In this document: one piece after another, positions 1,759 to 7,979 of the stretch
Layout of the letters: each line of letters starts with the position of its first letter
How positions within the stretch are numbered: the first letter of the stretch is position 1
Origin: Desulfuromonadales bacterium
Lineage (GTDB): Bacteria; Desulfobacterota; Desulfuromonadia; Desulfuromonadales; BM103
Direction: 5' to 3'
DNA: 29,987 nt
NCBI GenBank assembly: GCA_041611575.1
Contig: JBFIMV010000001.1
Span: 1-29,987 of the forward strand
Program-made: the position numbers and the translations under genes
The notes under the pieces: model-generated
What the model was told of the DNA's origin: nothing
Databases searched by the model: none
Seen by the model: only the letters and a program-made list of their open reading frames with translations

Positions 1759-2505
1759 ATGCACTTTGACATCCTCACGCTCTTCCCTGCAATGCTCGAA
1801 GGGCCGCTCGCGGCCAGTATTCTTGGCAAGGCCATCGAGAAGGGCCTGATCCGGGTCGATCTCCACAACCTGCGTGACTGGGCGGCCGGCCGGCACCAGG
1901 TGACCGACGACACCCCCTACGGTGGCGGAGATGGTATGGTCATGAAGGTTGAGCCGGTGGCAAGTGCCCTGGAAGAGCTCAGGGAACGGACGCCGGGTGC
2001 CCGAGTCCTGCTCATGTCTCCGCAGGGGAAGACCTTTCGGCAGGCGGATGCGGAACGGCTGAGTCGTGAGTCGGGGTTGATTATTGTCTGCGGTCGTTAC
2101 GAGGGGTACGATGAGCGTATCCGCTCCCTGGTCGACGAAGAGCTGTCGCTCGGAGACTTTGTCCTGACCGGCGGCGAACTGGCCGCCGTGACGATGCTCG
2201 ACGCCATCGCCCGTCTTGTCCCCGGAGTACTCGGTGCCGCCGGCAGTGCGTTGACCGACAGTTTCAGTGACGGCCTGCTCGAATATCCCCAGTACACGCG
2301 ACCGGCTGAATTCGCTGGGATGCGCGTGCCGGAGGTGCTCACCTCGGGGAACCACCAGGCGATCGCCACCTGGCGCCGTCGCGAGCAGCTGCGGCGTACC
2401 CTGGCCCGGCGGCCCGATCTGCTTGCCACCGCCCCTTTGAGTGACGCCGATCGTCTTTTCCTGAAGACGTTGCGCGCTTCGGACGATGGCGACGACACAT
2501 GCTGA
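1759..2505 (+). CDS. trmD: tRNA (guanine37-N1)-methyltransferase TrmD
   Basis: [60 protein letters not shown] motifs. Real start is ATG 1759, not 1684. Confidence 0.97.
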
Positions 2506-3116
2506 TGCAACCGATGGCCATTGCCCTGGTGCATTACCCGGTTCTGGATCGCCAGGGCAACGTCGTGACCTCTGCTGTTACCAATCTAGACATTCATGAT
2601 CTGGCACGGCTCGCTGCCACCTACGGCCTTTCACGTTACTATATCGTTACCCCGGCAGCCGAACAGCAGACCCTGGTCGCCCGGATCGCCGGCCATTGGC
2701 GCGAAGGGGCGGGGGCTGCCTACAATCCGGACCGCCGCCTGGCTCTGAAGCTGTTACAGGTTGTCGACACTCTCGAAGACGCCTTAATTGATTGGTGCCG
2801 TATCGCCGGGCCGGACGGCTGCGCGCTGCTAACAGGCGCAGGTTACCGCGACGGCCTCGATATTCCAGAGGCCAGAAAGATGGCGGACCTGCGGTCTTTG
2901 CTGCTGGTCTTCGGCACCGGCCATGGCCTAGCTCCCGAAATTCATGCCCCGGATAGGCCTTGCCTCAATGCGATACGGGGCGGGCACTTCAATCATCTCT
3001 CGGTGCGAACGGCCGCCGCCATTGTTCTAGATCGTCTGGTAGGAGAGGGAGGGGTTCTGTCTTTGGGTGGTTCGGTAAAGGAGTGTCGTAACAGCTTGCT
3101 AGACACGACAGAATAA
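2505..3116 (+). CDS. SPOUT-class RNA methyltransferase of unknown substrate (TrmD-associated family)
   Basis: IALVHYPV...VTSAVTNLDIHDLARLAATYG and C-terminal LLVFGTGHGL...FNHLSVRTAAAIVLDRL (SPOUT knot). TGATG stop/start overlap with trmD at 2503-2507; alternative start 2499. Confidence 0.85.
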   Translation: MQPMAIALVHYPVLDRQGNVVTSAVTNLDIHDLARLAATYGLSRYYIVTPAAEQQTLVARIAGHWREGAGAAYNPDRRLALKLLQVVDTLEDALIDWCRIAGPDGCALLTGAGYRDGLDIPEARKMADLRSLLLVFGTGHGLAPEIHAPDRPCLNAIRGGHFNHLSVRTAAAIVLDRLVGEGGVLSLGGSVKECRNSLLDTTE

Positions 3117-3158
3117 GCGGCAGATTAAAGACGGAAGCAAAAATATCACATGGGTTGC

Positions 3159-3187
3159 TTGCACAATGAGGTATTATGTGTTAGCTT
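3159..3187 (+). promoter_or_regulatory. Sigma70-type promoter for the small lipoprotein gene
   Basis: TTGCAC (3159-3164), 17-nt spacer, TAGCTT (3182-3187), with an extended -10 TG at 3179-3180. AT-rich context. Confidence 0.55.
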
Positions 3188-3235
3188 TTTGTAACTGACT
3201 GTAACGGTCAACAAATCCATAGATGGAGGCTTCTC

Positions 3236-3379
3236 ATGAATAAGCTATTTGCTTTTCTGGCGGTTGTGTTACTGACCTTTACGCTAACTGCCTGTGCAGC
3301 TACGACCGGGTCGAGCGACATGAAGGTTAAATGTCCTGCTTGCGGTCATGATTTCAGCGTTAAGGCCGGCGGTCCATAA
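3236..3379 (+). CDS. 47-aa small lipoprotein with a CPACGH motif (not in the ORF track)
   Basis: Hand translation: MNKLFAFLAVVLLTFTLTACAATTGSSDMKVKCPACGHDFSVKAGGP*. SD GGAGG at 3225-3229, 6 nt before ATG. Lys, then a hydrophobic core, then lipobox LTA/C20. Flanked by a promoter and a terminator. Confidence 0.82.
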   Translation: MNKLFAFLAVVLLTFTLTACAATTGSSDMKVKCPACGHDFSVKAGGP

Positions 3380-3408
3380 TCAACTCGCTCATTATGACAA
3401 CTAAACAG

Positions 3409-3451
3409 CCCCGACGTATCGACATCTGTCGATGCGTCGGGGTTTGCTTTT
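3409..3451 (+). terminator. Rho-independent terminator of the small lipoprotein gene
   Basis: CCCCGACGTATCGACA (3409-3424) pairs with TGTCGATGCGTCGGGG (3427-3442), one G-U pair, followed by TTTGCTTTT. Confidence 0.8.
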
Positions 3452-3512
3452 CGGGTTTTGTTGAAGTCAATGAGCTTGACCCGTTTTTTTGTGTTCGATG
3501 ACAGTTTTTGCC

Positions 3513-3542
3513 TTGACTCTCCATGAGGTTCTGGAGTAAATA
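3513..3542 (+). promoter_or_regulatory. Possible sigma70 promoter for rplS
   Basis: TTGACT (3513-3518), 18-nt spacer, TAAATA (3537-3542). The -10 is imperfect, but a promoter is expected here because a terminator lies upstream. Confidence 0.35.
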
Positions 3543-3571
3543 TCCTGTTCGCTGACTTCAGGAGGAACGAG

Positions 3572-3919
3572 ATGAATACCGTCAATTACATCGGCATGGA
3601 ACATATGAGGAAAGACGTCCCCCGTTTCAAGGCAGGGGATACGTTGCGCGTGCATGTGAAGATCACCGAAGGTGACAAACAGCGCATCCAGGTTTTCCAG
3701 GGCGTCTGCATCAAGCGGCACAACAACGGCGTCGGTTCGTCTTTTACCGTGCGCAAGGTGTCCAACGGCATGGGCGTCGAGAGGGTCTTCCCGCTGCACG
3801 GTCCGTGCGTCGACAAAGTCGAAGTCATGACCATCGGTCGCATCCGCCGGGCCAAGCTCTACTACCTGCGCAACCTGCAGGGCAAGGCTGCCCGTATTCG
3901 CGAGAAGCGCCAGAACTAA
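3572..3919 (+). CDS. rplS: 50S ribosomal protein L19
   Basis: [29 protein letters not shown]...[17 protein letters not shown]...[17 protein letters not shown] at 3560-3565. Confidence 0.98.
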
Positions 3920-5134: not shown

Positions 5135-7123
5135 GTGTCGACACTATTACGAGACCTTGGAATGATACGGGTCGCGGCGGTCTCCCCGGAATTGAAGGTT
5201 GCAGACGTCGCTTACAACCTGGCGGCGATCGAAGCGGCCACCCTGGAAGCTGTTGACCAGGGCGCACAGTTGATCGTCTTTCCGGAACTCGCCCTGACCG
5301 GTTATTCGTGCGGCGACCTCTTCTACCAGCAGAGCCTGCTCGACCAGGTGCGCGACAGCCTCAGCTCGCTGGCGGCGCTGAGCGGGCAAACGGCGACAAC
5401 CCTGGTCGTCGGCACCCCGGTCCGCCAGTCCGGCAGGCTGTTCAACGCCGCTGCAGTTCTCAGCCACGGCAGGATCTGTGGCGTGGTTCCCAAGACCTAT
5501 CTGCCCAACACCCAGGAATTTTACGAAGAGCGCTGGTTTTCGAGCGCGTCCGACGTGACCGATGACCAGCTGACCTGGCTTGCTGAAGCGCCGCCTTTCG
5601 GTGTCGACCTGCTGTTCGATGTCGAAGGGATGCAGGATTGCCTGTTCGGGGTGGAGATTTGTGAGGACGCCTGGGTTGCCAACCCGCCGAGCGGCAGCAT
5701 GGCCGCTGCCGGGGCCACCTTGCTGCTCAACCTCTCGGCCAGTCCGGAAATCCTCGGCAAGTGCCGTTATCGCCGTGCCCTGGTCGAAGCGCAATCGGCG
5801 CGCTGCCTGGCTGCCTACATCTACGCTTCGGCAGGCCCGGGAGAATCAAGTACCGACCTGGTCTTTTCGGGTCATTCCCTGATCGCCGAATACGGCCAGG
5901 TCCTCGCCGAAACCAAGCGATTTGCTTTCGAAACGCAGATGGCCATTGCCGATGTCGATATCCAGAGGCTGGTCCACGAGCGTCTGCGCAACAACAGCTA
6001 TGCGGCGATCCAGGCGGAGCAGGATTTCCTGCTGGTGCCGGTGCAGGTCGCCGAGCGCTCGGCAACGCGGCTGATGCGTCCGCACGTCAAAACCCCCTTC
6101 GTGCCGCTTGACGTCAGTGAGCGGCAGGCCCGTTGCGAAGAAATCTTTGCCATCCAGACCACCGGTCTCATGAAGCGTCTCATGCACACCGGCAGCCACA
6201 GGGTCGTTCTCGGCATTTCGGGCGGGCTCGATTCGACCCTGGCCCTGCTCGTGACCGTCAAGGCCTTCGACCGGCTGGGTTGGGACCGCGACGGCATCCT
6301 GGCCGTGACCATGCCCGGCTTCGGCACAACCGAGAGAACCCGCGGTAACGCCGGATCTCTCGCCGAAAAACTCGGCGTGACTTTGCGAACGATTGCCATC
6401 GATGCGGCTGTCAATCAGCATTTTACCGACATTGGTCAGGATCCACGCTCACACGATGTGACCTATGAGAACGCCCAGGCCCGCGAGCGCACTCAGATCC
6501 TTATGGATATGGCCAACCAGGTCGGCGGCCTGGTGGTCGGCACCGGAGACCTGTCGGAGCTGGCGCTGGGTTGGGCAACCTACAACGGTGATCACATGTC
6601 GATGTACGGGGTGAACGCGTCGGTGCCCAAGACCCTGGTGCGTTACCTGGTTGCCTGGTGCGCTGAGGCGGAGTTCAGCGGCCGGACGGCCGAAATCCTG
6701 CATGACGTTTGCGCCACTCCGGTCTCCCCCGAGCTGCTCCCGCCCGATACCAACGGTGACATCAGCCAGAAGACCGAGGAACACGTCGGCCCCTATGAAT
6801 TGCACGATTTTTTCCTGTTCCACGTCGTGCGCAATCAGTTTGCGCCTCGCAAGATTCTCGACCTGGCATGCCGGGCCTTCGCCGACGACTACCCTGCCGA
6901 TGTGATCCTGCACTGGCTGAAGGTCTTTTACCGGCGGTTCTTCGCCCAACAATTCAAGCGGTCCTGTCTGCCGGACGGGCCCAAGGTCGGCAGCGTCTCG
7001 CTCTCACCGCGCGGCGACTGGCGCATGCCGAGCGACGCCAGCTCGGCGCTATGGTTGGCCGAGTTGGACAGTATTCCCGTCAAGTCTCCCGGGAAGAAGG
7101 GTGGCGCGCGGCATGGCCGTTGA
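5135..7123 (+). CDS. nadE: Glutamine-dependent NAD+ synthetase (fused glutaminase and synthetase domains)
   Basis: N-terminal C-N hydrolase domain ([23 protein letters not shown]). C-terminal synthetase ([55 protein letters not shown]). SD GAGGAGG at 5122-5128 supports GTG 5135. Confidence 0.95.
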
Positions 7124-7979
7124 GCAGGGACGGAAGGGGGTGGGGACCCTCTACGTGGTCGCGACGCCGATCGGCAACCTCGAGGACATTACCTACCGGG
7201 CCGTTCGCATTCTCGGTGAGGTCGACCTGGTGGCGGCTGAGGACACGCGCCACAGCCGCAAGCTGTTTGCCCGTTACGGCATCAGCAAGCCCTTGGTCTC
7301 TTACCATGATCACAACGAGCAGCAACGCCTGGGTGGACTGATCGAACGGCTGCTGGACGGTCAGAACGTCGCCTTGATCAGTGACGCGGGTACGCCCTGC
7401 ATCGCCGATCCCGGTTATCGCCTGAGCGCAGCCTGCGCCGATGCTGGCATACCGGTGGTGCCGGTCCCCGGTCCGTCGGCCGTGATCGCGGCGCTGAGCG
7501 CCGCAGGGGTCAGCACCGAGCGATTCGCCTTCGAAGGGTATCTGCCGTCCCGCGCCAAGGCGCGCAGCGATGTGCTGAAATTGCTGCGCGACGAGCAGCG
7601 CACCCTGGTGTTCTATGAAGCTCCTCACCGCCTGGCGGCAACCCTGAGCGACATGTCGGCGATCATGGGGGCCGATAGGCCGTTGGTCGTCGGGCGTGAA
7701 CTCACCAAGTTGCACGAAGAGCTGTTCCGCGGCACGGTTGCCGGTGCCGTGGAGCGCTTCCGGGATGAACCGGCGCGGGGCGAACTGGTATTGATTGTCT
7801 CTCCGGGGCGCCGCGGGCCGATGATCAGCGCGCGCGAGGCTCTGCAGAAACTGCTCGCCGACGGCGATCTCTCGCGACGCGACGCTGTCAAGCTGGTGGC
7901 ACGGGAATATGGCATGTCAAGCAGTGATGTGTACCGCGAAAGCCTCAGGCTGTCGGAGGATGTGAATGGCACAAGCTGA
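7113..7979 (+). CDS. rsmI: 16S rRNA (cytidine1402-2'-O)-methyltransferase RsmI
   Basis: [54 protein letters not shown]. Start overlaps the nadE end. Confidence 0.95.

Follow-up and report, generated by a model that had tools for sequence, protein, structure and literature searches.

In a genome of the order Desulfuromonadales, a short open reading frame (ORF) of 47 amino acids lies between the genes of the trmD operon and rplS, and the question that this locus raises is whether so short a frame is a gene, and if so, what a protein of this size might do in the cell envelope. The ORF occupies positions 3236-3379 of the forward strand, stop codon included, of the stretch of 29,987 nucleotides that was analysed here, referred to below as the window. 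The local gene order is ffh, rpsP, a KH protein gene, rimM, trmD, a PF09936 RNA methyltransferase gene (2499-3116), the 47-aa ORF, rplS (3572-3919), rnhB and yraN. The frame had been pointed out in an earlier note made from the sequence alone, and both its length and the mature sequence quoted there are correct. All parts of the gene listed here are on the forward strand. A Shine-Dalgarno sequence, GGAGG, is found at 3225-3229, 6 nt ahead of the ATG, in agreement with the strong ribosome-binding site claimed before. The first 19 residues (3236-3292) read as a Sec/SPII signal peptide, with the n-region M-N-K, a 12-residue hydrophobic core and the lipobox L17-T18-A19 in front of Cys20, so that the protein follows the pattern expected of a lipoprotein, in which a basic n-region and a hydrophobic core precede a lipobox [LVI][ASTVI][GAS]-C. 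Cys20 (3293-3295) is the predicted lipid-attachment residue, and Ala21 is at position +2. It is followed by a flexible tether rich in Ala, Thr, Gly and Ser (residues 21-31, 3296-3328), the knuckle K32-C33-P34-A35-C36-G37-H38-D39-F40 (3329-3355) and a variable tail (residues 41-47, 3356-3376), which gives a mature peptide of 28 residues with a single C-P-A-C-G.

The gene is followed by an intrinsic terminator (3407-3460, forward strand), detected by a terminator scan and by folding, which consists of a perfect 17-bp stem at 3407-3444, 27 bases past the stop codon, with a 4-nt loop and a U-rich tract after it. Its predicted folding energy is -34.3 kcal/mol (z = -6.46), and none of 200 shuffled sequences was equally stable. 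The ORF had been credited with a terminator and a promoter of its own, of which the former is borne out and the latter was not found, since a sigma-70 promoter scan of positions 2900-3700 gave no site, and inspection by eye yielded no acceptable -35/-10 pair either. The gap of 119 nt between the upstream methyltransferase gene and the ORF contains no terminator, and read-through from the trmD and RNA-methyltransferase genes is equally possible. The strong terminator at 3407-3444 cuts rplS off from the trmD operon, and rplS would thus be expected to depend on a promoter of its own, for which the same scan (2900-3700) gave no candidate. Of note, Rfam returned a weak match to the Aggregatibacter sRNA JA03 at 3403-3449 (19.9 bits versus a gathering score of 44, E 0.04). 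This sole Rfam match lies on the terminator hairpin and is most likely due to chance, and the identity with JA03 was therefore rejected.

A single-sequence word-index search matched the query to itself alone, and the family surfaced only via genome-wide six-frame and profile searches. The six-frame search gave best matches with E<=1e-4 in 51 of 61 related genomes, with 1-10 copies per genome. In a collection of 5.8 billion proteins, a profile search retrieved 826 protein clusters, all either called "hypothetical" or plainly mis-named, and none of these clusters carries a Pfam domain. An exhaustive search of 1.84 billion representatives (50% identity) returned 342 sequences at E<=1e-3, mostly proteins of 44-52 aa. 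No Pfam or NCBIfam family matched the small lipoproteins above its cut-off, and what these collections did give were sub-threshold matches to zinc ribbons or to signal peptides, in line with the earlier statement that the protein could not be assigned to a described family. Genes of this kind are skipped by most annotation pipelines, with up to ten copies per genome, and a named family model would make hundreds of unannotated genes callable, even if the function proposed below turned out to be wrong.

The homologues keep the same frame, the lipobox and the cysteines in dozens of genomes. A ribosome-binding site precedes all 19 homologues that were first examined, nearly all of the full AGGAGG type. 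In an alignment of 18 sequences, the A-C of the lipobox and K-C-P-A-C-G-x-x-F are invariant, and over the alignments A1-A3 the lipobox cysteine is invariant, with the preceding alanine invariant in A1 and present in at least 90% of the sequences in A3, which bears out the lipobox LTA/C20 that had been read from the sequence. Across 65 genes the C, P, C and G of C-P-x-C-G are invariant at the protein level with every synonymous codon in use, and 72 gene pairs gave a median pS of 0.58 and a median pN of 0.12, a ratio of 0.24 (for example, pS 0.70 and pN 0.07 for the pair L031 and L032). It could be argued that the frame is a chance ORF in a non-coding spacer between the trmD-operon genes and rplS, since its small length is under the cut-offs used in gene calling and no promoter was found for it. 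However, chance would have to account for a frame, ribosome-binding site, lipobox and cysteines that are kept across dozens of unlinked loci with synonymous turnover, which makes this explanation practically out of the question; the homologues, the codon turnover at invariant residues and the pN/pS of 0.24 exclude it. The data thus show that 3236-3379 is a real gene under selection, that it encodes a Sec/SPII pre-lipoprotein, and that it is part of an undescribed family which occurs widely and in multiple copies in the Desulfuromonadales, and they support the claim of a genuine lipoprotein-type micro-protein. A tree of the family, built from sequences of 45-50 aa, is mostly unresolved, and the window copy groups weakly with free-standing copies of its own bacterial family.

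Full-length profile matches came from the window's own order only, and the database members that carry names (Desulfuromonas versatilis, Geothermobacter and Trichloromonas) point to the Desulfuromonadales as well. Cultured bacteria with a gene of the family include D. versatilis (DESUT3_01190) and Geothermobacter hydrogeniphilus. This order comprises environmentally important metal- and sulfur-reducing bacteria. Within it, some bacterial families are fully positive (f1 10/10, f6 6/6 and f19 5/5 genomes) and others are patchy (f12 9/20, f23 1/10). Among 75 genomes sampled from other families of the class (f26-f29), the search returned eight weak matches with E-values from 2e-4 to 9e-4, which cover the signal peptide only. 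A sample of the phylum contained diverged relatives with the same plan in three further families (L123:1498-1656, L124:1465-1632 and L122 at about 1500-1650), in two of which CPACG is replaced by CPKCG and in one by CPNCG. Judged by their sequences, these relatives suggest a wider superfamily of single-knuckle lipoproteins.

To describe what is conserved, sequence rules were counted over a set of 217 single-knuckle lipoproteins. The consensus of the knuckle in this set is [VI]-K-C-P-A-C-G-[YH]-E-F, with CPAC in 195 and CPSC in 16 of the 217 members. The distance from the lipid cysteine to the first knuckle cysteine is 13 residues in the window protein and in 144 of the 217, and 12-15 residues in 95% of the set. 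The residue at +2 is alanine in 201/217 members and aspartate in none, and the mature peptide contains three cysteines, two of them non-lipid, in 216/217. The glycine of CxxCG is followed by tyrosine in 138 members and by histidine in 59 (27%). Lys, Gly, Ala and Thr abound in the linkers, and Pro, Ala and Asp in the tail past CxxCG, whose length is 8-13 residues for most members. Any copper signature in the 217 members is weak, as histidine is not enriched in linker or tail, and methionine is raised about 2-fold, to 4.7% in the linkers. A Met-rich linker occurs in one member only, P0188 (L127:1711-1980), which has a 40-residue linker with G-M-M-x-x-D-K repeats and is encoded 44 nt past an Rv1681-like radical-SAM gene. 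Another unusual lipoprotein, P0142 (L125:5001-5384), is 127 aa long and contains three tandem knuckle units, G-V-S-Y-G-R-V-K-C-x-x-C-G-F-E-F. An AlphaFold2 model of the window protein, based on an alignment of 50 sequences, has a helix at residues 3-20, no helix past the signal peptide, and a beta-hairpin with strands 29-32 and 39-42 flanking CPACG, with a mean pLDDT of 86 over residues 31-40.

Several lines of comparison indicate what kind of module this hairpin resembles. The sub-threshold Pfam and NCBIfam matches were to zinc-ribbon, MJ0042 and rubredoxin-like families, with 16.7 bits for the window protein against PF13717 (cut-off 30.3) and 18.1 bits against TIGR02098 (cut-off 20.9), and the profile matches in the PDB were generic knuckles: C2H2 consensus fingers, eS27, LysW, rubredoxin and the Rad50 hook. 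Zinc ribbons and rubredoxins (Zn_ribbon_4/5, TIGR02098 MJ0042 and PF00301) share the knuckle sequence and the hairpin with the small lipoprotein, whereas they carry four cysteines per chain and no signal peptide, in contrast to the two non-lipid cysteines counted above. Membership of PF13717, PF13719, TIGR02098 or PF00301 was rejected, as a second CxxC is missing and the scores are under the cut-offs. The knuckle had been described as one half of a zinc ribbon, and this is supported by four cytoplasmic proteins of 50-58 aa (P0190, P0238, P0246 and P0268), in which the unit [VI][RK]-C-P-x-C-G-[YH]-x-F is present twice and makes up a complete four-Cys ribbon. Attachment of haem c is unlikely, since only 27% of the members have a histidine after CxxCG and the sequence is CxxC-G-H and not CxxCH, thus the earlier view that this is not a canonical cytochrome site holds. 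ExtJ (NF040942), PG1828, LptM and entericidin B were rejected as relatives, since the alignments listed cover residues 1-29 only and score far below the cut-offs.

A likeness at the level of the motif was found with the zinc hook of Rad50 (PDB 1L8D; PMC5093744), in which a beta-hairpin carries a single C-P-x-C-G and the fourth residue past the second cysteine is hydrophobic, as in the knuckle of the window protein. The spacing of the Rad50 hook, C444-P-V-C447-G-R-x-L451, equals that of C33-P-A-C36-G-H-D-F40 in the window (PMC5093744). Two copies of Rad50 share one Zn ion through four thiolates, and short hook peptides do so with femtomolar affinity; isolated hook peptides of 14 residues form Zn(peptide)2 with logK12 = 19.2 (PMC5093744). 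The likeness is at the motif level only, with E 0.53 for the family profile against 1L8D. In Rad50, a cytoplasmic ATPase of DNA repair, the hook caps a long coiled coil, whereas the hairpin of the small lipoprotein is on a lipid anchor and extracytoplasmic, and the flanking antiparallel coiled coil of an SMC-like ATPase is absent from the 28-aa mature peptide.

The cytoplasmic proteins that carry the same knuckle twice as a four-Cys ribbon, together with the Rad50-hook spacing, favour a thiolate metal site as the reading of this protein. The site would be tethered to the outer membrane, a second copy would probably complete it in the manner of the Rad50 zinc hook, and we put the probability of this reading at roughly 0.4. 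The proposed sequence of events would start with lipidation at Cys20 and removal of the signal peptide, which would yield the 28-aa mature peptide, and the alanine at +2 would direct this peptide to the outer membrane. Under the Lol rule of E. coli, which is also stated in PMC13056109, the alanine at +2, found in 201/217 members with Asp in none, predicts outer-membrane sorting for the family. The peptide would hang on a tether of ~12 residues into the periplasm, possibly reaching to the cell surface, and the hairpin V-K-C-P-A-C-G-H-D-F, the sole conserved module, would ligate a metal ion by its two thiolates. As there are two free cysteines per peptide, a tetrahedral site of the Zn or Fe type needs a second copy, whereas a soft ion, Cu(I) or Hg(II), could sit in one copy alone. 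In this way the family might provide a membrane-tethered thiolate metal site, or a metal buffer, in the envelope of anaerobes. Lipidated copper-binding peptides are a described precedent for the sequestration of metal at the membrane (PMC13056109). The AlphaFold2 hairpin around CPACG and the consistent sub-threshold matches to zinc-ribbon, MJ0042, rubredoxin-like and Rad50-hook profiles count in favour of the metal reading, as does the genomic context of an order-wide paralogue, which lies between a ResA/TlpA-like thioredoxin and an OmpJ-like porin (described below). If it is correct, these would be among the smallest conserved membrane-anchored metal sites that are known, and a synthetic peptide of 27 residues would be a simple system for the study of intermolecular thiolate metal sites outside the cytoplasm. 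What would be familiar here is the zinc-knuckle or hook motif, which in this case appears to be placed on a lipoprotein anchor in a family without a name.

Several observations count against a metal site. A CxxC pair in the oxidising periplasm tends toward a disulfide. There is no enrichment of histidine and a weak one of methionine, the window-type copies have no metal-resistance genes as neighbours, and P0142, whose three knuckles give an uneven count of Cys pairs, does not fit a simple scheme in which knuckles pair up into four-Cys sites. In addition, the near-invariant Pro-Ala, K, E and F appear to be kept more tightly than a mere chelator needs, a pattern of conservation that would also be expected if a partner protein or an enzyme had to recognise the motif. 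A complex prediction with two copies of residues 18-47 and Zn gave a score of 0.21 against a mark of 0.42, which was counted neither for nor against. The metal reading can be sharpened to a half-site metalloprotein, in which two lipid-anchored peptides of ~28 aa share one metal via four thiolates, as an extracytoplasmic zinc hook or, with iron, as a minimal membrane-bound rubredoxin-like Fe(Cys)4 centre in the envelope of bacteria that reduce metals and sulfur. Such a protein would be the enzyme-free anaerobic counterpart of the O2-dependent lipidated metallophores, and in this specific form we consider the proposal rather unlikely. As for the earlier description of an undescribed membrane-tethered micro-protein with half a zinc ribbon, the comparisons support it, and the chemistry suggested there is plausible as far as the sequences go.

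The near-invariance of the residues between the cysteines would also fit a motif that is a substrate for modification. In 2026, precursors were described that combine an SPII signal with a C-terminal CPACGMG, in which the cytoplasmic MNIO enzymes ChrH/DybH rebuild the motif before lipidation (PMC13056109). These CPACG-containing, chryseobasin-type DAG-RiPPs are the nearest described look-alike of the small lipoproteins. Like the latter, the precursors DybA and ChrA are very small, with an SPII signal, a lipid-attachment cysteine and CPACG, and lead to a tethered product of a few dozen residues. They differ from it in that CPxCGxG is at the extreme C-terminus, whereas in the small lipoprotein CPACG-[YH]-[ED]-F is followed by a tail of 8-13 residues and there is no xG. 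An MNIO (PF05114) is encoded beside the DybA and ChrA precursors, in contrast to the small lipoprotein family, with PF05114 absent from the 61 genomes, including the window's own (81% complete), in a search that did detect the family in the control genome of Caulobacter. Moreover, MNIOs use O2, and the hosts of the small lipoprotein family are anaerobes. The NCBIfam model for ChrA, NF050124, gave no match above its cut-off, and 3 of 18 members matched it weakly, with a best E of 0.072. Since the motif is internal without xG and PF05114 is found in 0/61 genomes, the family can be excluded from the ChrA/DybA-type peptides, and the suggestion that the protein is a precursor for post-translational modification fails for the single known system that matches it.

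This leaves the idea of an anaerobic counterpart of DybA/ChrA, a precursor on which an as yet unrecognised enzyme would rebuild CPACG to give a modified lipopeptide. The architecture of an SPII signal followed by CPACG, as in DybA (PMC13056109), the weak matches of three members to the ChrA model (E 0.07), and the near-invariant Pro-Ala between the cysteines (195/217 CPAC) would fit such a precursor, and in three loci a radical-SAM gene is located less than 2 kb from a family member (L127, L028 at 6438-7409 and L047 at 2284-3258). However, none of the conserved neighbour genes resembles a maturase, the motif is internal, with no xG after CG, and the enzymes of the known system, PF05114, need O2 and are missing from all 61 genomes. 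This radical-SAM gene is present in only 9 of the 61 genomes, adjacent in only 2 of those 9, and missing from the window's genome, and its enzyme was rejected as a family-wide maturase. Taken together, a modified peptide seems very unlikely to us. The lipidated copper-binding bufferins and oxazolins, such as NedA, share the role proposed for the metal site, as small peptides on a lipid anchor that bind a chalcophilic metal at the membrane, and their ligands are enzyme-made heterocycles on EGKCG-type motifs (PMC13056109), whereas plain thiolates are proposed for the small lipoprotein, with no modifying enzyme present. If the thiolate metal site is correct, the design of a lipid anchor plus CPACG known from enzyme-modified peptides would also exist in a plain, unmodified form in anaerobes.

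To examine the genomic contexts, about 60 loci were fetched and their neighbour genes clustered, from which three types of paralogue emerged. The commonest one, found throughout the order and referred to as the porin type, carries the sequence ...[KR]-V-[KR]-V-K-C-P-A-C-G-Y-E-F-[DE]-A-P. Its small gene is located 10-130 nt upstream of a gene for an OmpJ-like porin on the same strand, which is followed by the gene for an FG-GAP protein of ~600 aa, an arrangement seen at about 27 of 62 loci and spread over many of the order's families. The outer-membrane porin measures 390-495 aa and ends in an aromatic residue; no Pfam domain was found in it, and its match to the porin model NF033939 is sub-threshold. 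By eye it resembles the tryptic peptides of OmpJ printed in PMC1186022. Exact matches were found in none of the fetched neighbours for any of the 8 peptides, and short cores of these gave two chance-level 5-mers only; as it rests on this by-eye likeness, the label OmpJ-like is provisional. OmpJ has been reported to be abundant in the outer membrane of Geobacter and to be required for the reduction of Fe(III) and Mn(IV) oxides (PMC1186022), thus one copy of the small gene would precede a homologue of this porin, with the same reservation on the label. The row of thioredoxin, CPACG lipoprotein, porin and FG-GAP genes can be seen at L021:5155-9434, at L024:5220-9685 and in about 27 further loci, and it is usually located downstream of the genes for methylmalonyl-CoA mutase, MeaB and an epimerase.

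The arrangement suggests another function, in which the lipoprotein is an accessory of an envelope complex whose rigid hairpin docks on an outer-membrane partner such as the OmpJ-like porin or the periplasmic FG-GAP protein, to anchor or modulate this partner. The cysteine pair would then merely staple the hairpin, and the window copy would be a spare paralogue. The about 27 of 62 loci with the small gene 10-130 nt in front of the porin and FG-GAP genes fit this explanation, as do the porin features, i.e., the C-terminal aromatic residue and the sub-threshold NF033939 match, and the tight tether length and conserved flanking residues would suit a docking geometry. However, 140 of 151 genomes in the class encode a member of the FG-GAP family, even in families in which the small protein was not found; in f23 it is present in 10/10 genomes versus 1/10 for the small protein, and f26-f28 likewise have FG-GAP proteins without it, indicating that the porin operon is independent of the small protein. 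Moreover, the window-type and crcB-linked paralogues are not located beside porins. With 0-1 cysteines, neither the porins nor the FG-GAP proteins are able to complete a shared Cys site. A role as porin accessory is therefore somewhat unlikely.

The same loci bear on a redox function. In at least 16 of the porin-type loci, an exported ResA/TlpA-like thioredoxin, with a signal peptide and the motif WCPTC, is encoded 290-470 nt upstream on the same strand. For a thiolate metal site, this thioredoxin could serve to keep the knuckle reduced. Alternatively, CPAC itself might be a redox-active dithiol/disulfide that cycles as a tethered substrate or relay of the thioredoxin, and that might sense or buffer the redox state of the envelope or, in these reducers of sulfur and metals, attack sulfur or polysulfide. 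CxxC is a classic redox motif, rhodanese genes are close by in some loci, and NlpE is an outer-membrane lipoprotein with a redox-sensing CxxC, all of which would speak for this explanation, in addition to the thioredoxin genes in the at least 16 loci. Yet there is no thioredoxin fold around the CxxC, and short CPxCG hairpin knuckles typify metal sites rather than redox sites. The thioredoxin linkage may also mirror no more than inherited synteny, and it is missing for the window copy, thus we regard a redox relay as decidedly doubtful.

The window protein belongs to the free-standing type, with C-P-A-C-G-[HYQ]-x-F, which occurs mainly in its own bacterial family, in varied surroundings and in some cases as tandem pairs. 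The neighbours of window-type copies include genes for an amino-acid-binding protein, a Na/Pi transporter, a TetR regulator and a rhodanese, and among these neighbours there is no theme of metal resistance. None of about 80 homologue loci has a homologue adjoining rplS, and in relatives the gap between the methyltransferase gene and rplS contains either a gene for a 209-aa secreted protein, one for the thiol peroxidase Tpx, or only about 100 nt. The position of the window copy is thus lineage-specific, in a slot (3117-3571) whose contents vary. The third type is located between a sigma factor gene and a row of crcB, DUF190, TerB and methyltransferase genes, and its sequence ends in ...F-D-A-[LI]-x-x-x-[RN]-[FY]. 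These copies are divergent from the gene for a sigma-70-family factor and upstream of crcB, as for example at L080:4974-7031. The window's genome also contains a crcB-type copy, at the very end of another contig (C267; L117, G000; 11-271 on the reverse strand), with the tail ...FDALYQKRY.
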